A stretch of 64,000 nucleotides of DNA from IMG/VR virus record IMGVR_UViG_3300013830_000006, positions 31,577 through 95,576 of that record, one strand, 5' to 3'. Every line of letters begins with the position of its first letter. Position 1 is the first letter of the stretch. The DNA comes from a virus. Taxonomy: Duplodnaviria; Caudoviricetes. Of the stretch, positions 42,521 through 53,654 are shown piece after piece. The position numbers and the translations under genes were made by a program. The notes under the pieces are model-generated. The model saw only the letters and a program-made list of their open reading frames with translations. It ran no database searches and was not told where the DNA came from.

Positions 42521-43231
42521 ATGTCATCGAATGTCGGCGCTATAAAGGGTAAGAAAGATCTGATTGATGTTATCGAAGATAATATTATTCCTTTAACTGC
42601 TATTGCGCTTATTCACAGAATTGGTCTTAAAAAATATAAGATGTTTTCGTGGTACAACGACCCCTATCAAACAGATGGTTCTGTCAGACATAATCTTAAT
42701 GCTATCCTCAGACATTTCTCAGCACATAGAAGCGGCTGTACTATTGACCCTGAATCAGGATTACCGCATATCTTTCATATGGCTTGTAGATGTGGTATGG
42801 CAGTAACTGTTTATTATAAAGAGCATCTTCAACCAAAAAATAAAATCAATCCAGATAGGTTGTTTATTACTCCTTGGTCTCTCGGAATGCTGCTTACTGG
42901 AGAAGAATTAATTTCTTTATCCAAATTCAATCCAGTTGTACCAGAGAACAGAGTAACAATTGATGAATTAGCTGTTAATATAAACAATATTTTATATTCT
43001 ATTATATTAGACGGCGATATCACTTCAGCCGGTGATGACCTTTTAAATGATGTGAATAGCTTAGATTCATTGTTCAGTAATATCTGCGACTATGTTAAAA
43101 AAGTATGGACAACTACTAATCTAAAAGAATCTGTTAATATCGATGTCATTCCTAAACATTACTACTCTATCCTTGGTTTAGACCATGAAATGAATCAAAC
43201 TCTCTATAGGAGATTTATGCATGTCAACTGA
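42521..43231 (+). CDS. dATP/dGTP diphosphohydrolase-like (DUF5664) domain protein
   Basis: GLKKY...SW...AILRHF...DPESGLPHIFHMAC signature. Confidence 0.7.
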   Translation: MSSNVGAIKGKKDLIDVIEDNIIPLTAIALIHRIGLKKYKMFSWYNDPYQTDGSVRHNLNAILRHFSAHRSGCTIDPESGLPHIFHMACRCGMAVTVYYKEHLQPKNKINPDRLFITPWSLGMLLTGEELISLSKFNPVVPENRVTIDELAVNINNILYSIILDGDITSAGDDLLNDVNSLDSLFSNICDYVKKVWTTTNLKESVNIDVIPKHYYSILGLDHEMNQTLYRRFMHVN

Positions 43232-44567: not shown

Positions 44568-45080
44568 TTAGAAAGGTATACGATAATATTTAGTCTGGCC
44601 ATCCCCGTAGATTGTTTCGTAGAACGAAGCAAACGTGTTAGTCTCATTGAACTCAAAATTACTTATAGCTTCAAGTATTTCATTAACTGCATCAAGTAAC
44701 TCTAACTTCTTCTTAAAATAAGCTTCGACAATAGAAAGACCAATCTTATGCTGAGCCCTAAGAAGATTAGGTTTACCATCTCTCTTACAAGGAATCATAA
44801 CGCATTTAGCAGCTATTCCAAGAAAATGAGGGGTAATAAAATCAGTCCTGTTCCTCTGATCAGGAGTAGGATACTGAAGAAGATCAAGATGCCTTAAATC
44901 ATTCATATCAAACAGATACTCAGTATTAGCAAAAACTAATTTGAACGTAGTATCAAAATGAATAGAAGGTAAACCTCTCCTAATAATATCTCGGCAATAA
45001 TATTCCTTAAGAACATCTCCATTCTGCTGAAGCTGTTCAAGAGTCCAATCCTCGCCGTAGCGGGTAGTAGTCTTAGTCAT
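44568..45080 (-). CDS. Hypothetical protein
   Basis: 170-aa ORF with AAGGA SD, flanked by hairpins. Confidence 0.6.
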   Translation of the reverse strand: MTKTTTRYGEDWTLEQLQQNGDVLKEYYCRDIIRRGLPSIHFDTTFKLVFANTEYLFDMNDLRHLDLLQYPTPDQRNRTDFITPHFLGIAAKCVMIPCKRDGKPNLLRAQHKIGLSIVEAYFKKKLELLDAVNEILEAISNFEFNETNTFASFYETIYGDGQTKYYRIPF

Positions 45081-45165
45081 TTAAAATATCCTTTAAATTT
45101 AGATTATCAAGGATAACAACCAAGAGGTTGTTATCCTCTTTATATTATAAAGATCGTTAATAATT

Positions 45166-45450
45166 TTAATCTTCTGTCCATGCCTTTTCACAAATGCTCA
45201 CAATATTATCTTCAGGTATAGGAGCAAGTTTACCAGTTAAAAGTTCAGCAAGATAATCCTGAATACCTGATACACTTTTTCTTATATCTGCATGAGCTGT
45301 GTCAGATTCGTTATGAACAGTAACAGTACCTGTTTCATATTGCATCTGAAGATCATCCATACGATCAATCTGCTTGCGAATTAACTGCATAAGCAGGTTA
45401 TGATCTTCTAATTCCTGATATCCTAATTGAACTGTATTTTCATCAGACAT
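45166..45450 (-). CDS. Short paralog of the tail-fibre N-terminal module
   Basis: MSDENTVQLGYQELEDHN matches MSDETTVQLGHQELQDHN of 52644..53654. Confidence 0.7.
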   Translation of the reverse strand: MSDENTVQLGYQELEDHNLLMQLIRKQIDRMDDLQMQYETGTVTVHNESDTAHADIRKSVSGIQDYLAELLTGKLAPIPEDNIVSICEKAWTED

Positions 45451-45477: not shown

Positions 45478-46389
45478 TCATGAGGAATACTTCCTTACAT
45501 AATAGCTGGTTATAAAAGGACCGGCTTTAGCACCATAGATATTATATAATTTATTTTGCATAGAAAATGGATCAAACATTCTAAACGATCTATCGCATAT
45601 CTTTTGTTTAACAGCCTCTACTTGCTGATTGAAAGTATCAGACAGATATTGCTTAATGGTATCATAATGTTCATACCACCAGTGATATTGATTATTATTA
45701 TACACTATCACTGGGCTATCTGTTTCTTTGATCTCAAATGGTTTTTTATTTCCAACATAATGAACCATTATTGGATTATCAATAAAAGTATCGCTCTTAG
45801 CATTAAATTTATTATCCAGATAAGTTATATGCTCATGATAAAGATCCTCTAAAAACGCTTCATCCAGATTTAAATATTTCTTATAATTCTTAGAACAATA
45901 ATTCTGAAATAACCTGAAATAATCTAAATGATTATTTTTCATCAGAATCAATCCGCAATTACATTCCGGACAATAAGAATTATATCTTACTCCGCCATAA
46001 ATAAAATCGTTATCGATATACTCTTTAATTGAAGATATTGAATTCATAAATACAGTATCAATATCAAAATAAAGAAAATACTGATTAGATTGTTCTGACA
46101 TTACTTTAAACTTAGCAGCTATTAATTTGAATATTGGATTATAAAAAATATTCCAGCTGTGCTCAGAAGTATCAAACATCTCAAAATTATATTGCTTAAA
46201 ATAATAATCTGTGAGATGAAGATCTTCTATAGCTACATTGATATAATCTATAAACTGCTGTTGAGTAAAGTTCATACAGTATACATGAACAGATACATCT
46301 CTATTGAATTTCTTAAAAGAACTCAGAGACACCAAGGATGCCTCTGAGTAATGCGCATCAACTATTACAAATGCATAAACATCTAGCAT
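45478..46389 (-). CDS. GT8-like glycosyltransferase
   Basis: LYFDID (DxD), NCGLIL, DEAFL and HYVGNKKPF motifs. Confidence 0.85.
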   Translation of the reverse strand: MLDVYAFVIVDAHYSEASLVSLSSFKKFNRDVSVHVYCMNFTQQQFIDYINVAIEDLHLTDYYFKQYNFEMFDTSEHSWNIFYNPIFKLIAAKFKVMSEQSNQYFLYFDIDTVFMNSISSIKEYIDNDFIYGGVRYNSYCPECNCGLILMKNNHLDYFRLFQNYCSKNYKKYLNLDEAFLEDLYHEHITYLDNKFNAKSDTFIDNPIMVHYVGNKKPFEIKETDSPVIVYNNNQYHWWYEHYDTIKQYLSDTFNQQVEAVKQKICDRSFRMFDPFSMQNKLYNIYGAKAGPFITSYYVRKYSS

Positions 46390-47306
46390 GACTTAAACCA
46401 AGATATTGTATATTTCAATCCAGTATCCAAATCAACAGTTGGTTCCCAATTGAGAAACTGCTTAGCTTTAGAAATATCGGGTCTACGATCTCTTGGATCA
46501 TCAGAATCTCCTCTGACATAAGAAATTTCACTTGATGAACCGGTTACCTTAATAACTTTCTCAGCCAACTGATGAACCGACATGTATTCATTAGGATTAC
46601 CTATATTGATAGGTGTAGGAACATTCTCATTAAGAGAAAGTAATCCTCTTACCGTATCAGCTATATAACAGAATGATCGTTTCTGTTCTCCGGTATTATG
46701 AACAATAAGATCATCATTATTAAGAGCTCTTACTACAAACTCACTGATAACTCTGCCATCATTCTTCTGCATACCCGGGCCATAGGTATTAAATAAACGA
46801 GCTATCGCATATTTAACTTTACTGTTAACTATAATAGCTTCAGCGCATCGTTTACCTTCATCATAGCAGGCACGTGTTCCAATAGGATTGACGTTGCCTT
46901 TATATGTTTCTTTCTGAGGGCAGACTAATGGATCGCCATATACCTCTGATGTTGATGTATGAATGAATACTGCATCATTCTTACGACACTCATAAATCAT
47001 GTTCAGCACACCTTCTGTACAGGTTTTCAGTGTGTCTATCGGGTGCTCTTTATATTTGATAGGAGAGGCTATACATGCCAAATTGTACATCTTATCAAAT
47101 TTAAAATCAAAATGAACATCACAAATATCTTCATAGATAAAATGAAATTCATGATTATTCTCTTTAGCATACTGTTTGAGTAGCTCAATAGAATTACCGG
47201 AAGATGAAATCAGATTATCTACAACTACTACATCAGAGGTTTTTAACAGTTCTTTACATAAATGAGTGCCGATAAAACCAGCACCTCCAGTAACTACTGT
47301 TAGCAT
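46383..47306 (-). CDS. UDP-glucuronate decarboxylase (UDP-xylose synthase)-like SDR
   Basis: TGGAGFIG, NLACIASPIKY, STSEVYGDP, GNVNPIGTRACYDEGKR, FNTYGP and DDPRDRRPDI, characteristic of the UXS subfamily. Confidence 0.85.
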   Translation of the reverse strand: MLTVVTGGAGFIGTHLCKELLKTSDVVVVDNLISSSGNSIELLKQYAKENNHEFHFIYEDICDVHFDFKFDKMYNLACIASPIKYKEHPIDTLKTCTEGVLNMIYECRKNDAVFIHTSTSEVYGDPLVCPQKETYKGNVNPIGTRACYDEGKRCAEAIIVNSKVKYAIARLFNTYGPGMQKNDGRVISEFVVRALNNDDLIVHNTGEQKRSFCYIADTVRGLLSLNENVPTPINIGNPNEYMSVHQLAEKVIKVTGSSSEISYVRGDSDDPRDRRPDISKAKQFLNWEPTVDLDTGLKYTISWFKSC

Positions 47307-48239
47307 TTACCACTCCTTAATTCTCTCAATAAGATTATCAGTTAGATTAACAAAATTACGTTCTGTTTCAGAATGTAAATTGCTTAATCTATATTTGGTA
47401 TATAACTGATTAAGTTTAACTGTCTTAATAAATAGATTATATCTGATACTGAACTCACTGAATAATTTTACACCACAGCAAAAGATAAAATTACTCTTAA
47501 AAATTTTATCATAAGTATAATTAACCCAAGGTTTAGTATATGTACCATTAAAATGAAAAGCTAATACATTCTTAGAATAATCAATCTTAGTGATATCCAT
47601 ATACTGAGCAATAATTGTCTGATCGGTATAAGCCCTTTTATCAACAGCAAGCTCGTTCAAAATATCCTGTTCAGGAACAAGATAATGAATAGAATCATGT
47701 TTAAGACGTTCTGACATCTCTTCAACAAACGTCTTCTTAAGATTAAACTTGCTTTTATTAAATTTGCATATACCAACATTGATCTGTTGTTTTGGTGTAT
47801 GATTAAGTGGATCAGTACTATCTGCTCTTCTTTTACAATCATCTGATTCTTCTGCACCGCACATTGAACAGTCTCTAATATTCTCCAGAGGTTTGATACT
47901 ATCAAAATAAATAACATCAAGATCGACTCTGATTAAATCATCATCTTTGATTTTATCCAGGATATAAAAAGACCACAATGTCATCAATGCTACATTGGTT
48001 GCAAAGAATACAGAATTGTGCTTAATAGAATAAATGTAATTGCTTGTTTTTTCATCATAAACATTTACAATATTCAATTTATCTCTATAAGGTTTATCTT
48101 TAAAGAAGTCTACAACTTTATCGTAACCTTCATCGCATACATAGAGATTAAGCACTACATCATTAAACTTAAAAAATGAAATCAATCCTATCTGTGCTAC
48201 TTCGCAATAGTCTGATGTCATCAACGCAAAATAGTGCAT
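47307..48239 (-). CDS. GT8-like glycosyltransferase
   Basis: RVDLDV, INVG, PEQDILN and HFNGTYTKPW motifs. Confidence 0.85.
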   Translation of the reverse strand: MHYFALMTSDYCEVAQIGLISFFKFNDVVLNLYVCDEGYDKVVDFFKDKPYRDKLNIVNVYDEKTSNYIYSIKHNSVFFATNVALMTLWSFYILDKIKDDDLIRVDLDVIYFDSIKPLENIRDCSMCGAEESDDCKRRADSTDPLNHTPKQQINVGICKFNKSKFNLKKTFVEEMSERLKHDSIHYLVPEQDILNELAVDKRAYTDQTIIAQYMDITKIDYSKNVLAFHFNGTYTKPWVNYTYDKIFKSNFIFCCGVKLFSEFSIRYNLFIKTVKLNQLYTKYRLSNLHSETERNFVNLTDNLIERIKEW

Positions 48240-49211
48240 TTAAGCGAGGCCCCATTTCTTGAATTTCTGATACATTAAAGCACCGTAATATGCAGCACCA
48301 TTGTTTACAAAAGAATAATGATTGCTTGTATCGGTTATTACCTGATCAATAGCAGCAATAAAATCATTATCACAACGATATTTAACTGCCTGATCTCTGT
48401 ACCATTTATAAGTAGATTTAAAGCAAGGATAAATCAAATTCTCTTTACGGATGAACGGTTTATCAAGACCTGCATAGTGAATAAACACAGGTTTTTCTAC
48501 ATTAAAATAATCATTAATGTCAGCCATTGAAATAAGCCAGCCATCAATGTTCATATTGTAATGATTATAATTCTTATAGATAAGATTGATTGCATCCTGA
48601 TCAGGAAAATATAATCTATTCAAGCCATAAGTATCATATATCAGAAGAGAACGTTTGAAATGATCAGTAATAGTGTTCTTATTAATTCTAAGAATAAAAT
48701 TACCCATATTCATATAGTTCTCAATCACTGATATCGAATCAGGTATTACTCCATTACACCACATAGGTCTCATAACAGAGTTTTCAATAGAACTACCTAC
48801 AATACAATCTGAATTCAGAAAGTTATTAACACTATTATCGATAGATGAAGTAAATGCAACGTCAAGATCTAATCTAAGAATAGATTTAGTATCTTTTTTA
48901 TATTTCTCAATAGTTCTGTCTAATAACTCATTAGCTACAAATATGTCAAACAAATGATCATTATCAAATACATAACAAGACTTAGCAAAGTTACTTCTAT
49001 TTTTATCGAAATATTCTTTTGACTTGGTTTCACCAATATTGACAAATTCTACATTATCATAATGAAATTCCTGATTAAAATAATCAGCAGAATTATCAGT
49101 AAGATAAACAATTAACTTGCTATGGTTATAAGCACAAAAAGATCCTATGCTTATTCGCATAGGATTCACATAGTTCTTAGTACCAATAGCAAAACAAATA
49201 ACGTTTTGCAT
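48240..49211 (-). CDS. GT8-like glycosyltransferase
   Basis: RLDLDV, YMNMG, PDQDAIN and HYAGLDKPF motifs. Confidence 0.85.
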   Translation of the reverse strand: MQNVICFAIGTKNYVNPMRISIGSFCAYNHSKLIVYLTDNSADYFNQEFHYDNVEFVNIGETKSKEYFDKNRSNFAKSCYVFDNDHLFDIFVANELLDRTIEKYKKDTKSILRLDLDVAFTSSIDNSVNNFLNSDCIVGSSIENSVMRPMWCNGVIPDSISVIENYMNMGNFILRINKNTITDHFKRSLLIYDTYGLNRLYFPDQDAINLIYKNYNHYNMNIDGWLISMADINDYFNVEKPVFIHYAGLDKPFIRKENLIYPCFKSTYKWYRDQAVKYRCDNDFIAAIDQVITDTSNHYSFVNNGAAYYGALMYQKFKKWGLA

Positions 49212-49220
49212 ATTGACTCC

Positions 49221-49712
49221 TTAATCCCAATTTATCTTAGGAAACTGCTTGATAACATCATCAGGAGTCGGTAAAGGTATCTCACGTTTCTCATACTTGG
49301 ATAAAGTATCAAAACAAATCTTCCAGCACTCATCCCTATATGCAATAAACTTCTTAGCCTCAGTTGCAAAAGTAGTATTAGTTGAATTAGCATAAGATAC
49401 TAACGCAAAAGAATCATTATATCTCTTTTCTTTGGCAACAGAATCAAGATAGTTCTGAACAGCATCGGTTACCGCTTTGGAAATCATATCGTCATTAGTA
49501 TCTTCATGCTGAACAGGCTGGTTATTCAGATCAAGCACTTGAATGTCAACCTTCTTCTCATTGAGATAATCGAGAACTTGTTTAGCGAAAACATTGGTCT
49601 CAATATCCATAATGACAGTACCGTAATTGATATAATCAATCTGTAAATTATTAACGTACAAATGATTCTTATCCTTGCCGTACCACTTCACATCATCATA
49701 AAACACTTCCAT
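49221..49712 (-). CDS. Tail-fibre assembly/chaperone-like protein
   Basis: VQNYLDSVAKEKRYN...SYANS...FATEAKKFIAYRDECW...PKINW pattern of phage fibre-adjacent proteins. Confidence 0.65.
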   Translation of the reverse strand: MEVFYDDVKWYGKDKNHLYVNNLQIDYINYGTVIMDIETNVFAKQVLDYLNEKKVDIQVLDLNNQPVQHEDTNDDMISKAVTDAVQNYLDSVAKEKRYNDSFALVSYANSTNTTFATEAKKFIAYRDECWKICFDTLSKYEKREIPLPTPDDVIKQFPKINWD

Positions 49713-50586
49713 AGAGTTTATTTCTCCTATCTGTTATTTTGGCTTTCATAGCTAATAGGTTATTGATATAAGATCGTTTCGCATCAACTATTTTACAGAA
49801 ACGATCTGAAAGAATGTTTAACGATTTAACTCTATCGTATAGAGTATACCATTCGTTTGCACTTATTAAAAATTTTGTTCCAAAAATATTCTGTACCAGA
49901 TTTTTAGTACAGGAATCCCATAATTTCACGTCTTCTGGATAAAAATGCGAAATCACTGTTCTATCCGAATCGAATATATTAGCTTGTGGAACAATATGCA
50001 GATAATCAATAAATTCTCCGCGTGTATAATTAGTAAGATTATCTAAAAGATATTCTTCCGGATACGAGATTTTTTCTTTGCTTTGTGATAACAAATGATT
50101 GTATGTATTAAGCAGTATCGAACTATCAGTTTGATTAAGTACAATCACACCGGCATTATATCCATATCCTTTTTCTCGATGATGTCTGGAACCTATTATA
50201 TTTGTAGTCGTGTCTGTCAGAAATACTGAGAGATTACCACGTATAAGTATATCAATATCCAGATATAAAATATGTTTTTCACCTGATGCCCAAAATTTAA
50301 TCTTATGTTCAAGTACCTCAGTATGAGCAGCATAGGCAGTTTGCTCTCTATCATCGAGTGTGACATATTTGTCATTACCTGACTGAGTATACGCTTCTAC
50401 TATTACATTAGGAAAATATTTAGATACTGTATATTTGTATACTGTGAATTTTTCTTCAGGAAAATTTACGCAATGCGCGTGAAGAATCTTATCTGAATTA
50501 TACTGATTAAACGATGCAAAAAATACATAACTCAAATCAGCATACCATTCATCAAAAGCACAGAAAATATAAAAGTCAGTTTTCAT
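49696..50586 (-). CDS. GT8-like glycosyltransferase
   Basis: LYLDIDIL, YNAGVIVLN, YPEEYLL and SHFY motifs. Confidence 0.8.
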   Translation of the reverse strand: MKTDFYIFCAFDEWYADLSYVFFASFNQYNSDKILHAHCVNFPEEKFTVYKYTVSKYFPNVIVEAYTQSGNDKYVTLDDREQTAYAAHTEVLEHKIKFWASGEKHILYLDIDILIRGNLSVFLTDTTTNIIGSRHHREKGYGYNAGVIVLNQTDSSILLNTYNHLLSQSKEKISYPEEYLLDNLTNYTRGEFIDYLHIVPQANIFDSDRTVISHFYPEDVKLWDSCTKNLVQNIFGTKFLISANEWYTLYDRVKSLNILSDRFCKIVDAKRSYINNLLAMKAKITDRRNKLYGSVL

Positions 50587-51424
50587 GTAATTCTAACTTA
50601 TCATATTTATTATAGAGATATTGTTTTTGAATCAGTCGATTATATATAATCTGTTTTAAAAAATTCATATGTGGTGTTTTTACCAAACATTTCTTAATAG
50701 CTTTGAGAAGTTCTTTATCTTCTGCTATCAGATAATATTCATTTAAGAATATGAATGTTTCATCAAAAGTATCTTCATCATGATCGGTATCAGTTCTATA
50801 GATATCAAACAATACAACTTTATAATCAAACCTGTATGTATTAAACAGATTATCGCAAAGTAAATTGTTTAATACTATTTTCTGATCACAGATTACATTT
50901 AAAGCAATTCTATCGGTATAAAGTTGAGCATCGGGGGGCAAAACAACTGTTGCTAATTCAGTTAAATTATTAGGAATATTCTTTTTATTTAAAATCAAAA
51001 ATGCACCATCCAAATAAATGAATTCCGTTCTGATAATATCATAAGAATCATTCACCAGATTTATATCAAACATCGGATCAACCGCTGATCCGCACATTTG
51101 CCAGTTAGGTTTTTTATTTAAGTCAAGTAAATTCCGATCAATCGATTCTCTGCAGAAGCATCTATCATCCGCAATGATAATATAATCAGTATCAGTTAAC
51201 AGCAAATCGTCTATCTTTTTAAGAAATGATAATCTATAATTTCCATTATACGGTAAAAGTTCTTCACAAATGCAACCTTCAATGTCATCCGGTTTAGTTG
51301 ATGCAGCTACAATTACAAACTTATAGCAGATATCTTTACTGTTATTAACTTTCTTAAAGCTTTTTAAAAACGTTTTAAGCTGATTTCTAAATCGCTCATA
51401 GATCAATACAGTAACATTAATCAT
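50576..51424 (-). CDS. Divergent GT8-like glycosyltransferase
   Basis: IIADDR, YLDGAFLILN and TDRIALN appear in GT8 motif order. Confidence 0.6.
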   Translation of the reverse strand: MINVTVLIYERFRNQLKTFLKSFKKVNNSKDICYKFVIVAASTKPDDIEGCICEELLPYNGNYRLSFLKKIDDLLLTDTDYIIIADDRCFCRESIDRNLLDLNKKPNWQMCGSAVDPMFDINLVNDSYDIIRTEFIYLDGAFLILNKKNIPNNLTELATVVLPPDAQLYTDRIALNVICDQKIVLNNLLCDNLFNTYRFDYKVVLFDIYRTDTDHDEDTFDETFIFLNEYYLIAEDKELLKAIKKCLVKTPHMNFLKQIIYNRLIQKQYLYNKYDKLELHEN

Positions 51425-52582
51425 TTAAATAAATCCTCCGGTAACTTGGACACCGTGCGAGAAATATACACCTTTTGAAGCATCTACTGCAATATCCCAA
51501 ACAATAACACATTTGTCCACATCGGCGTATGTATATTTATATGTACCACCACTCGATGATGTCTGTACATATGTCGAACTTACTACAGTTCTATAGCTAT
51601 ATCGTTCCTGATGTTCTCCTACTTTATATACGCCATAAACCGTTCCATTGCCGTCATTACCTTCTTCTTCTCCGCCCCTAGTAGTAACTCCACACCAAAA
51701 CACTTTACCATTCATACGTGCTGGCCACTGAAACATTTCCGCTTTTCTATAATGATAATAATCATAACTGCTTGTAGAACCAGTAGATACTCGAGTACGA
51801 GTATCATACACCCAATATCTGGCATTCCAACCAGTATCTTTGCTTACATATCTGTCAGCATAATCAGTCGCATTGGATGTATCCCACACCTGTACCCGAA
51901 TATTATAGCCACCAGTATCCTGTAATTGCACAGTTACACTACGAGTCTGACCGTTAACAGTATTATAAATATATCCATCTTTGACAACAACATTTCGATT
52001 ACTACCTGTTTTTACTTGATAGTATAATCTATCATTATCAGAATCGCTGCACCAAAAAGTTATTGTAACTCTCCCATCGAAAGACGGACTGGGAGTATAA
52101 TTCGTTATAGTAACATAAGGTGCTCTGTTAGGATTATACCAGGTTACACCAACAGTATTGGAAGTAGCTCTTCCGCCATAAGGATCAGATACTGTACAAT
52201 TATAATAATTAGTAGTATTAGAAGCTGATACTGTTATAGTTCTTGAAGTAGCACCAGTATTCCATCTATAAGATAAACTGTCTCCATCTGGATCAGAAGC
52301 ATATGCTGTGATTGTTACCCAAGAACCATTAGCTATTCTATTCGAACTTGCTCCAACGGTTACAGAAGGATTGTGATTAATAAACGTTCTTGAAACTGCT
52401 GCTCTATAATCTCCTACTTTTAATGCACCAAGTGTATAACGCCATCTGTTATAATCTACTGTTGAATTTATATTTCCTCTAAAAAGAGGTACATAACCAG
52501 CACCATGAATAATTAAACTTGGCGTAGTCACCTTATCTCCGAGTAACAAATAAGGCGAATTATTTGTTCGTATTGTAGCCAT
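51425..52582 (-). CDS. Ig-like (PKD-type) domain virion/fibre protein, Ser/Thr-rich
   Basis: Two NxxPxV...SDPDGDSLSYRW / SDSDNDRLYY Ig-like modules. Confidence 0.65.
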   Translation of the reverse strand: MATIRTNNSPYLLLGDKVTTPSLIIHGAGYVPLFRGNINSTVDYNRWRYTLGALKVGDYRAAVSRTFINHNPSVTVGASSNRIANGSWVTITAYASDPDGDSLSYRWNTGATSRTITVSASNTTNYYNCTVSDPYGGRATSNTVGVTWYNPNRAPYVTITNYTPSPSFDGRVTITFWCSDSDNDRLYYQVKTGSNRNVVVKDGYIYNTVNGQTRSVTVQLQDTGGYNIRVQVWDTSNATDYADRYVSKDTGWNARYWVYDTRTRVSTGSTSSYDYYHYRKAEMFQWPARMNGKVFWCGVTTRGGEEEGNDGNGTVYGVYKVGEHQERYSYRTVVSSTYVQTSSSGGTYKYTYADVDKCVIVWDIAVDASKGVYFSHGVQVTGGFI

Positions 52583-52643
52583 TTAAAACCTCATTAAAAC
52601 TTTAGCAGTTACTAGAGTATGACAACTCTAGTAACTTACTTAT

Positions 52644-53654
52644 TCAACCAACAGTAACATAATAATTTGAAATATAAAATCCAGCATTATTGGTAGATCT
52701 TTGAGCGTAAGTTGATACATCAGCAAAATTAGCATGATTAGCATTGGTAGCTGTATCAGCATTACCATTCAAATTAGCTTTAATTACTGCTGGAAGTTTA
52801 ATCATAGCGTTAGTTGTACCATCAAAAGTGGCAGCAATACCAGTATTGGTACCATATGCATCCTGAACGTTAATAGTTCTCGGCGTATTTAATTTAGTAG
52901 CAGATGATGCTACACCAGTTGTATTGACATCAATAGTATCAGGAAGTTTAATGGTAATAGGTTTAGAACCATCGAATTTAACGTTATCACCAGTGTGAGC
53001 TCCGGTACTATCCTTAATATTAATAACAACAGGATTAATTAATTTTGTAGCCGTATCTGAATTGCCTGTAACATTTCCCTTAACATTACCGGTTACATTA
53101 CCTTTAAGATCTGCAGTTATTGTAGAAGGTAATACAAAGTTAGTATTGCCACCAGTTATTCTGATACTATTACCTGTATGTTCATTAGTTGCATCGCTAA
53201 TGGTAATATTAGGCCTATTAAGAATATCATCAAACTGTCCAGTATGACCAACAGCTGAAACATCTTTGTCGTATATCTTCAGTGCTACATCAGCTTCTAA
53301 TGCAGTTAATCTATCATTCTGAACATTGTTAACTTCAACAGCATTTCTTAATCTTAAATCAAAATCATTCAAGTTATCAGTAATTCTTTTATCAGTAGCA
53401 TCCGTTTTCTTGGTTATATCATCTTTAAATGAATCTAATTGATTCTGAAGTTCATTATTTCCTTCAGCAAGCAATATACGAAGATCCGGATGCGATGATT
53501 CAGATTCATTATGCTCAGTAAGAGCAGTTAAATTCTGATCATATAAATCTGTCAATAATTTAATCTTTTCAAGGAGTTTTCTGATATACTCCACTAATTC
53601 GTTGTGGTCTTGTAATTCTTGGTGACCTAATTGTACGGTAGTCTCATCGGACAT
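52644..53654 (-). CDS. Tail fibre protein
   Basis: LKGNVTGNVKGNVTGNSDTATKL, ASSATKLNTPRTIN, FDGS/FDGT and GNADTAT fibre repeats. Confidence 0.8.
   Translation of the reverse strand: MSDETTVQLGHQELQDHNELVEYIRKLLEKIKLLTDLYDQNLTALTEHNESESSHPDLRILLAEGNNELQNQLDSFKDDITKKTDATDKRITDNLNDFDLRLRNAVEVNNVQNDRLTALEADVALKIYDKDVSAVGHTGQFDDILNRPNITISDATNEHTGNSIRITGGNTNFVLPSTITADLKGNVTGNVKGNVTGNSDTATKLINPVVINIKDSTGAHTGDNVKFDGSKPITIKLPDTIDVNTTGVASSATKLNTPRTINVQDAYGTNTGIAATFDGTTNAMIKLPAVIKANLNGNADTATNANHANFADVSTYAQRSTNNAGFYISNYYVTVG

Follow-up and report, generated by a model that had tools for sequence, protein, structure and literature searches.

The window analysed here is a 64,000-nt stretch of tailed-phage DNA, bases 31577–95576 of the 95.6-kb IMG/VR record IMGVR_UViG_3300013830_000006, which is ~36% complete. 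Its minus strand carries a tightly packed run of nine open reading frames (ORFs), reading from 53654 down to 45478, in which genes for a fibre-like protein and an immunoglobulin (Ig)-like protein are joined to genes for a predicted UDP-xylose synthase (UXS) and for five glycosyltransferase (GT)-like proteins, four of them distantly related to family GT8. We favour the interpretation that this cassette directs the cytoplasmic glycosylation of a virion surface protein, a reading to which we give slightly less than an even chance. The genes are listed below in their order of transcription, with each GT-like protein named by its length.

52644..53654, minus strand: fibre-like protein, 336 aa, with an N-terminal coiled-coil region followed by repeats of the TADLKGNVTGN and SATKL.TPRTI...FDG types
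51425..52582, minus strand: all-beta Ig-like protein, 385 aa, with two PKD/Ig domains
50576..51424, minus strand: GT-A-like protein by predicted fold, 282 aa (GT282), an uncertain glycosyltransferase
49696..50586, minus strand: putative GT8-like glycosyltransferase, 296 aa (GT296), with YLDID at 108–112 and HF....K.W at 214
49221..49712, minus strand: 163-aa protein with no assigned function, conserved within the cassette
48240..49211, minus strand: putative GT8-like glycosyltransferase, 323 aa (GT323), with LDLD at 114–117, DQDAIN at 204 and HYAGLDKPF at 245
47307..48239, minus strand: putative GT8-like glycosyltransferase, 310 aa (GT310), with VDLD, PEQDILN at 189 and HFNGTYTKPW at 229
46383..47306, minus strand: predicted UDP-glucuronate decarboxylase (UXS), 307 aa, by homology to UXS1
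45478..46389, minus strand: putative GT8-like glycosyltransferase, 303 aa (GT303), with YFDID at 107–111 and HYVGNKKPF at 210

All nine ORFs lie on the minus strand in this order and at these positions, as an earlier note made from the letters of the window had described them. From 52582 to 45478 the intergenic gaps are 0–9 nt and the overlaps 7–17 nt, which leaves no space for internal promoters, and this segment is therefore a single operon. With neighbouring genes contiguous or overlapping all the way from the Ig-like gene to the last GT gene, co-transcription is expected and translational coupling is probable.

The arrangement is preserved in a relative. An independent metagenome contig from JGI (Ga0256404_1018007, 7,952 nt) contains the entire cassette in identical order, running from the C-terminus of a fibre gene through the Ig-like, 282, 296-type, 163-type, 323-type, 310, UXS and 303 genes. 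A different fibre-like gene follows downstream, and fibre-like genes are thus present on both flanks. Identities to the window proteins are 52% for the Ig-like protein, 65–79% for the GTs and 92.5% for the UXS. The dN/dS ratios are 0.05–0.18 for all of the enzymes and for the 163-aa ORF, with synonymous sites near saturation, and the value for GT282 is 0.14; all of these genes, GT282 included, are therefore kept by selection. The same gene order in a relative under purifying selection indicates that the run is not a chance arrangement. A second fragment repeats the 296/163/323 order. In addition, the longest contigs holding GT323 homologues and those holding Ig-like homologues are of identical size three times (217,916, 36,298 and 5,929 nt), and these matching sizes suggest that the two genes are linked in homologues of 37–59% identity, and that the linkage persists down to 37–45%. 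Cassette homologues are found on long contigs of 217,916, 169,382, 132,288 and 36,298 nt.

The predicted sugar-donor enzyme is the 307-aa short-chain dehydrogenase/reductase (SDR). It aligns over its full length with human UXS1 (PDB 4gll and 2b69; 263 bits, E 3e-77), as compared with 104 bits for the UDP-glucuronate epimerase-like structure 6zlj, 72 bits for ArnA and for UDP-apiose/xylose synthase (UAXS), and 66 bits for RmlB. The NCBIfam model for bifunctional UDP-4-keto-pentose/UDP-xylose synthase gives 102 bits, under its cut-off of 294 bits. The NAD-binding GxxGxxG motif of the Rossmann fold is present as GGAGFIG at residues 7–13, and the catalytic blocks STSEVYG (118; STSE at 118–121) and YDEGKR (148; YDEGK at 148–152) match 4gll residue for residue. 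On this homology the SDR falls clearly in the UXS clade, with UDP-xylose synthesis as its predicted activity. The earlier note had proposed a UXS-like SDR through which the phage makes its own sugar donor, and both proposals are well supported by the homology and by the intact catalytic residues; identification as some other epimerase or dehydratase scores far lower. The UXS is also the most conserved gene of the cassette (dN/dS 0.05). Like the human and bacterial enzymes, it retains the Rossmann, STSE and YxxxK motifs and the other signature blocks; it differs from them in being phage-encoded, in lacking a membrane anchor and in its distance from cellular sequences, the nearest found being 45–47% identical and coming from cyanobacterial and alphaproteobacterial metagenome-assembled genomes. 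We considered using these matches as a pointer to the host or to the origin of the gene and dropped the idea in view of their low identity.

UXS-like genes were also noted in two other records. In Pseudomonas phage QdP_Psa3 (PV055685.1, 2691–11540), an SDR 38% identical to the cassette UXS lies near genes for a thymidylate-synthase-like protein, a helicase, a UDP-glucose dehydrogenase (UGD) and a nucleotidyltransferase, and this region looks like a pentose-type DNA hypermodification cluster. In the record named 'Aphanizomenon phage Yong-DA' (ON073792.1), the UXS gene is surrounded by Wzy, Wzc, polysaccharide export protein, UGD and GDP-mannose dehydrogenase genes, and the region looks more like a bacterial surface-polysaccharide locus than a phage genome.

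The GT-like proteins are highly divergent. The gathering score of the Pfam GT8 family (PF01501, Glyco_transf_8) is 24.3 bits, and none of the five sequences reaches it: the two best score 16.7 and 16.1 bits and the other three have no match. GT323 is linked to the family through its relatives. It has six homologues in a collection of 5.8 billion proteins, and one of these, 44% identical to it, passes the Pfam GT8 threshold (best E 1.3e-8). The GT323 family profile finds the GT8 structure 3tzt with an E value of 5.9e-6 and LgtC with 2e-3, and an AlphaFold (AF2) model with a predicted local distance difference test score (pLDDT) of 71 retrieves LgtC, GlyE, XXYLT1, LARGE1, glycogenin and 3tzt in Foldseek (E 4e-9 to 7e-8). 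When aligned with the GT323 profile by hhalign, GT303 gives a probability of 96.8% (E 2.5e-10) and GT310 a probability of 90% (E 1.6e-6); GT303 also shows a sub-threshold match to the C-terminal motif of Pfam GT8 (E 0.0085). GT296 matches GT303 orthologues by BLAST, via the syntenic JGI contig (E 1e-6 and 3e-10), matches the N-terminal half of Pfam GT8 under the cut-off (E 0.0056 and 7.7e-4), and has an ESM-Atlas model that resembles GT8 clusters with template modelling (TM) scores of 0.68–0.76.

The sequence motifs of these four proteins are those of GT8. The DxD motif appears as LDLD in GT323, VDLD in GT310, FDID in GT303 and LDID in GT296, and all four are retained in the orthologues on the JGI contig. 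The C-terminal His motif reads HYAGLDKPF, HFNGTYTKPW, HYVGNKKPF and HF....KLW, respectively. The D/EQDxLN block is found in two of the four, as DQDAIN in GT323 and EQDILN in GT310. The orthologues retain the His motifs and these blocks as well. By profile, motifs and predicted fold, GT323, GT310 and GT303 can be regarded as distant members of GT8, a family of retaining enzymes with the GT-A fold, and GT296 is by sequence their paralogue.

GT282 stands apart. It has eight relatives among 1.84 billion representatives, reads IIADD at the expected DxD site, where its family has ADD, ADE, ADG, AYD or VEN, and shows neither a conserved DxD nor a His motif. A mediocre ESM-Atlas model resembles GT8 clusters with TM scores of 0.62–0.66, and its structural neighbours in the Atlas include clusters named 'lipopolysaccharide 1,2-glucosyltransferase'. 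A profile of nine family sequences had no match in PDB or Pfam; aligned with the GT323 profile by hhalign, it reached a probability of 7.6%. We regard GT282 as GT-A-like by predicted fold and uncertain as a catalyst. The earlier note had called five GT8-like transferases; that description holds at the level of sequence for GT323, GT310, GT303 and GT296, and for GT282 it extends to the predicted fold only. No hydrophobic segments are found in any enzyme of the cassette, and the enzymes are therefore expected to be soluble and cytoplasmic.

The fold matches of GT323 bear on the kind of acceptor to be expected. GlyE, XXYLT1, LARGE1 and glycogenin all extend protein O-glycans or prime a protein. 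Among the top matches, at E values of about 1e-8, are GlyE from S. pneumoniae (5gvv), mouse XXYLT1 (4wlm) and the xylosyltransferase domain of LARGE1 (7ui6), and the latter two use UDP-xylose, the donor predicted for the cassette. The sequence identities to GT323 are only 13–17%, however, and neither donor nor acceptor can be read from the fold. GlyE offers a parallel in gene organization, since it sits in a multi-GT island beside the gene for its own serine-rich substrate and extends the glycan of a pneumococcal serine-rich adhesin. The cassette differs from that system in having neither a serine-rich-repeat substrate nor an initiator of the GtfA/B type.

Two structural-type proteins of the cassette are candidate acceptors. 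The Ig-like protein consists of a conserved N-terminal segment (1–67), two PKD/Ig domains (68–150 and 151–250) and a variable C-terminal beta domain. Pfam PKD is matched with an E value of 1.3e-5, the AF2 model is all-beta with a pLDDT of 83, and the Ig-like domains give Z scores of 10–11 to PKD domains and 9.4 to phage Hoc. Among 57 relatives, the N-terminal 75 residues are almost invariant, the PKD domains are shared and the C-terminal half differs freely; relative to its counterpart on the JGI contig the protein has a dN/dS of 0.45. This modular, fast-evolving pattern is that of an exposed module facing the host or the environment and makes the protein a candidate virion component and a candidate glycan acceptor. 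Its serine plus threonine content, 21.3%, is the highest in the window (mean 12.8%, standard deviation 2.5). The Ser/Thr-rich, Ig-like character given to it in the earlier note is thus borne out in composition and in the two PKD domains, with the qualification that the residues are spread diffusely over beta strands and form no tracts.

The fibre-like protein starts at the ATG at 53654, which is preceded 8 nt upstream by AGGAG. It matches PHROG 6722, a tail fibre family (E 8e-5), and, by tblastn, the long distal tail fibre subunits of T4-like Acinetobacter phages (E about 1e-4). Its repeats match chain cU of PDB 8h2i ('P22', 1343 aa) with an E value of 7e-21. The 8h2i structure is reportedly a chlorovirus capsid; if so, the match points to a repeat type common to a phage fibre and a giant-virus surface protein. 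In residues 143–207 the repeat PSTITADLKGNVTGN matches 13 consecutive repeats of the same chain. Taken with the PHROG and distal-fibre matches, this sustains the earlier tail-fibre call at moderate strength. Downstream of the last GT gene, a 94-aa ORF begins with a segment (residues 1–59) that shares 49% identity with the N-terminal part of the fibre-like protein (encoded at 53478–53654; BLASTP E 2e-15). Genes with one and the same N-terminal module therefore stand at both ends of the cassette. This shared 59-residue module may mark a point at which fibre modules are swapped, or it may be a common docking domain.

In the mechanism that we favour, an uncultured nucleus-forming jumbo phage would carry the cassette as an accessory operon of late type, in which a fibre-like protein and an exposed PKD protein are coupled to a soluble glycan-building kit. 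The UXS would convert host UDP-glucuronate to UDP-xylose. Tails and fibres assemble outside the phage nucleus, and it is in this cytoplasmic space that the transferases would act in sequence, building a short xylose-containing oligosaccharide on a phage surface protein prior to its incorporation into the particle. Four or five paralogous GT-A/GT8-like enzymes under purifying selection make a multi-step glycan plausible. The likeliest acceptors, singly or together, would be the fibre and the 385-aa Ig-like protein encoded with the enzymes; the identity of the acceptor is the part of this scheme that we infer. The glycan could change how the particle adheres, withstands proteases or is recognised in the gut. 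A more specific version is correspondingly more tentative and, in our judgement, doubtful: a gut nucleus-forming jumbo phage, equipped with its own UDP-xylose, would decorate a fibre-associated Ig-like protein with a xylose-containing O-glycan by means of an array of divergent GT8-like enzymes, one of them a glycogenin-like direct protein primer.

We prefer a virion acceptor for four reasons: (i) the genes are closely coupled in their operon, and fibre genes at its flanks are a conserved feature; (ii) machinery for lipid-linked polymers is absent, with no GT2 in the 95.6-kb record and no phosphoglycosyl transferase, flippase or polymerase seen among the ORFs of the window; (iii) several structural neighbours of GT323 extend or prime protein glycans, two of them with UDP-xylose; and (iv) there is an experimental precedent in mycobacteriophages, whose virions are glycosylated by phage GTs adjoining structural genes (Freeman et al. 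2023, Cell Host Microbe, as reported in PMC12619734).

Several observations weigh against glycosylation of the virion. Across the ORFs of the window, Ser/Thr residues number at most 8 in any stretch of 15, and neither the fibre-like nor the Ig-like protein has a Ser/Thr C-terminal tail, in contrast to the phage systems in which virion glycosylation is proven or proposed. No initiating protein-O-glycosyltransferase was recognised. The 95.6-kb record contains no UGD, and the UDP-glucuronate substrate would therefore have to be supplied by the host, making the UXS pathway dependent on host metabolism. Upstream regions read by eye gave no firm promoter class, late or early; sigma-70-type sites are rarer than in shuffled sequence, and the motif TATATAAC, which precedes the fibre gene, shows no enrichment. 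Moreover, bacterial GT8 enzymes mostly act on lipopolysaccharide (LPS), and the GT8 genes found among the fibre genes of pelagimyophages have been read as modifiers of the host O-chain (PMC7029224). Of the earlier note's proposal that the glycan is built on fibres or virion proteins, the operon structure and the missing lipid-linked-glycan machinery uphold the general direction, while the lack of Ser/Thr acceptor tracts and the published pelagimyophage reading count against it.

The strongest competitor is remodelling of the host envelope, which we regard as possible but rather unlikely. Here the soluble GT8-like enzymes would add xylose and other sugars at the cytoplasmic face to a host glycolipid or wall polymer, such as the LPS core, an O-chain precursor or teichoic acid, and host transporters would export the product. 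The purpose would be to mask receptors, either blocking superinfection or keeping progeny from sticking to debris. This agrees with the characterised bacterial GT8 enzymes, such as LgtC, which are LPS or lipooligosaccharide (LOS) glycosyltransferases; LgtC is a top match of GT323 by both sequence and fold, and the 'lipopolysaccharide 1,2-glucosyltransferase' clusters near GT282 point the same way. It also agrees with the interpretation given to the pelagimyophage GT8 and sugar-nucleotide genes of the fibre, or 'host recognition', cluster (PMC7029224), and with phage proteins that have no acceptor tracts. On the other hand, the enzyme genes are closely tied to a structural fibre gene and an Ig-like gene, and not to genes of early expression or host takeover. 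Five new transferases also seem more than receptor masking would require, the cassette has no membrane-associated component, and a product formed late in a lytic infection would have only a short interval in which to be displayed on the cell.

Other cytoplasmic acceptors are improbable. The enzymes might modify host proteins in a toxin-like takeover, as GT-A glucosylating toxins do, or make a free or storage oligosaccharide; in a variant of this idea some paralogues, chiefly GT282, would be non-catalytic sugar-binding or scaffold proteins. The GT8-like fold is indeed common to the protein-modifying glycogenin and UGGT, the GT282 family lacks a conserved DxD, and the central 163-aa protein has no place in the other readings. 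There is, however, no sequence-level similarity to toxin GT families, and such acceptors fail to explain the conserved linkage to fibre and Ig-like genes.

Least probable of all, and very unlikely in our estimate, is DNA hypermodification, in which xylose-containing glycans would be placed on a modified phage base for evasion of restriction. Phage GT-A and GT-B enzymes are on record as glycosylating 5-hydroxymethylcytosine (5hmC) with diverse glycans; the known DNA GT-A enzymes are JGT/TarP-like, in contrast to the GT8-like enzymes of the cassette, and lie beside MT/5mYOX or ThyS genes (bioRxiv 10.1101/2023.12.21.572611). The context of the UXS-like gene of QdP_Psa3, beside thymidylate-synthase-like, UGD and helicase genes, speaks for such a role, as do a UvsX-like gene and a gene for a protein with a dATP/dGTP-diphosphohydrolase N-domain that flank the operon on the other strand. 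Against it, the operon partners are structural, and no match to PF00303 (ThyS/hydroxymethylase) or PF12851 (TET/JBP) occurs in the 95.6-kb record, a negative that is limited by the ~36% completeness of the record and by a TET search that was silent in all control genomes. In addition, the nuclear shell of the Chimalliviridae shields phage DNA; the DNA of a nucleus-forming phage would already be protected and the enzymes would need to be imported into the nucleus. The earlier note had likewise thought DNA modification less likely, and it is disfavoured here, although weakly: the record is incomplete and the QdP_Psa3 context points the other way.

Returning to glycosylation of a virion protein, the closest published parallel in gene content is the host recognition cluster of pelagimyophages and cyanomyophages, in which several GTs, most commonly GT8, and sugar-nucleotide enzymes occur among tail-fibre genes (Zaragoza-Solas et al. 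2020, PMC7029224). The likeness lies in GT8 and sugar-nucleotide genes amid the fibre genes of a large lytic myophage, with function predicted there as well. Those phages are T4-like marine phages in which the genes form a hypervariable island of 34–45 kb, whereas the present case is a compact 8-kb operon of a nucleus-forming jumbo phage, syntenic in a relative. The cassette is also distinct in its make-up, a UXS gene with five GT8-like paralogues of high divergence and neither UGD nor heptose genes.

Virion glycosylation in the mycobacteriophages Che8, Corndog and Myrna is similar in that phage GTs adjoin structural genes and decoration of the particle is proposed. In those phages the glycans were reportedly measured at the C-terminal ends of capsid and tail-tube subunits. 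The present cassette differs in that Ser/Thr tails are absent, the candidate acceptors are the fibre and the Ig-like protein, and the phage would supply its own UDP-xylose. The chlorovirus PBCV-1 encodes cytoplasmic GTs that build xylose-containing N-linked glycans on its major capsid protein. It shares with the proposed pathway a virus-encoded, cytoplasmic, multi-GT route to xylose-containing glycans on a virion protein, and differs in its eukaryotic host, in the N-linkage to the major capsid protein and in the GT families involved.

The general pattern of GT8-type transferases and sugar-nucleotide enzymes among fibre genes has thus already been published for T4-like marine phages (PMC7029224). 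Three aspects of the cassette appear to be new: (i) the lineage, a nucleus-forming jumbo phage, since we found no link between Chimalliviridae and such a cassette in the literature; (ii) the UDP-xylose donor, since the literature search found no combination of phage, UDP-xylose, glycosyltransferase and tail fibre; and (iii) a compact syntenic array of very divergent paralogues without a relative among sequenced phages, by tblastn of GT323, GT296 and GT303 against GenBank. The Ig-like protein likewise gave no tblastn match among GenBank phages, and megablast of the 9-kb region found no match there and no close cultured relative. IMG/VR scans with GT323, a GT323 alignment, the UvsX-like neighbour and an Ig-like alignment found no relative save one distant PKD match. 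The UvsX-like neighbour has its best GenBank matches, at ~30% identity, in jumbo phages of Klebsiella, Erwinia, Pseudomonas and Bacillus.

If the glycogenin-like priming version is true, the cassette would be the first example of a phage xylosylation pathway and also of virion glycosylation beyond the actinobacteriophages. A glycan on the particle would extend the sugar-coating of virions from mycobacteriophages to gut jumbo phages and would bear on phage adherence to mucus and host surfaces, protease resistance and immune recognition, with relevance for phage therapy and for the annotation of metagenomic cassettes with GTs among fibre genes. The cassette forms a small, self-contained set of a single donor enzyme, four or five transferases and two candidate acceptors, and this makes it convenient for heterologous reconstitution. 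Such an experiment could decide between virion and host surface, a question that dates from the pelagimyophage report. The five paralogues, which lie far from the GT8 enzymes of any sequenced phage, also offer new sequence space for the family.

The 163-aa ORF had been labelled 'fibre chaperone-like' in the earlier note. We do not retain this label: searches of Pfam, PHROGs and PDB sequences gave no match, and a homologue search returned close relatives only. The orthologue on the JGI contig is 69% identical, with a dN/dS of 0.10. A protein 100% identical to the 163-aa ORF occurs on 54 contigs, the longest of 132,288 nt, so the phage or near-identical strains recur across many samples.

Base composition differs within the cassette. 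The window averages ~35% GC and the UXS gene has 36%, whereas the five GT-like genes, including that of GT282, lie at 28–31%, which suggests that the transferase genes have an origin or mutational history other than that of the rest. Other features in and around the operon are as follows.

52607..52636: 12-bp palindromic hairpin between the fibre and Ig-like genes, which are 61 nt apart
45166..45450, minus strand: 94-aa protein with a fibre-like N-terminus, by BLASTP
45110..45137: 12-bp palindromic hairpin after the 94-aa gene
44568..45080, minus strand: 170-aa protein with no assigned function, the last gene of the minus-strand run, with a hairpin after it

The hairpins at 52607–52636 and 45110–45137 are perfect 12-bp palindromes, and no clear T-run follows either of them on the coding strand. 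Both may serve in attenuation or RNA processing and in this way adjust the amount of structural protein relative to the enzymes. On the opposite strand, 2.2 kb from the cassette, a gene at 42521–43231 (plus strand) encodes a 236-aa protein whose N-terminal domain is of the dATP/dGTP diphosphohydrolase type (PF18909, E 1e-13) and whose remainder has no match. Domains of the PF18909 type occur in phages that replace a DNA base.

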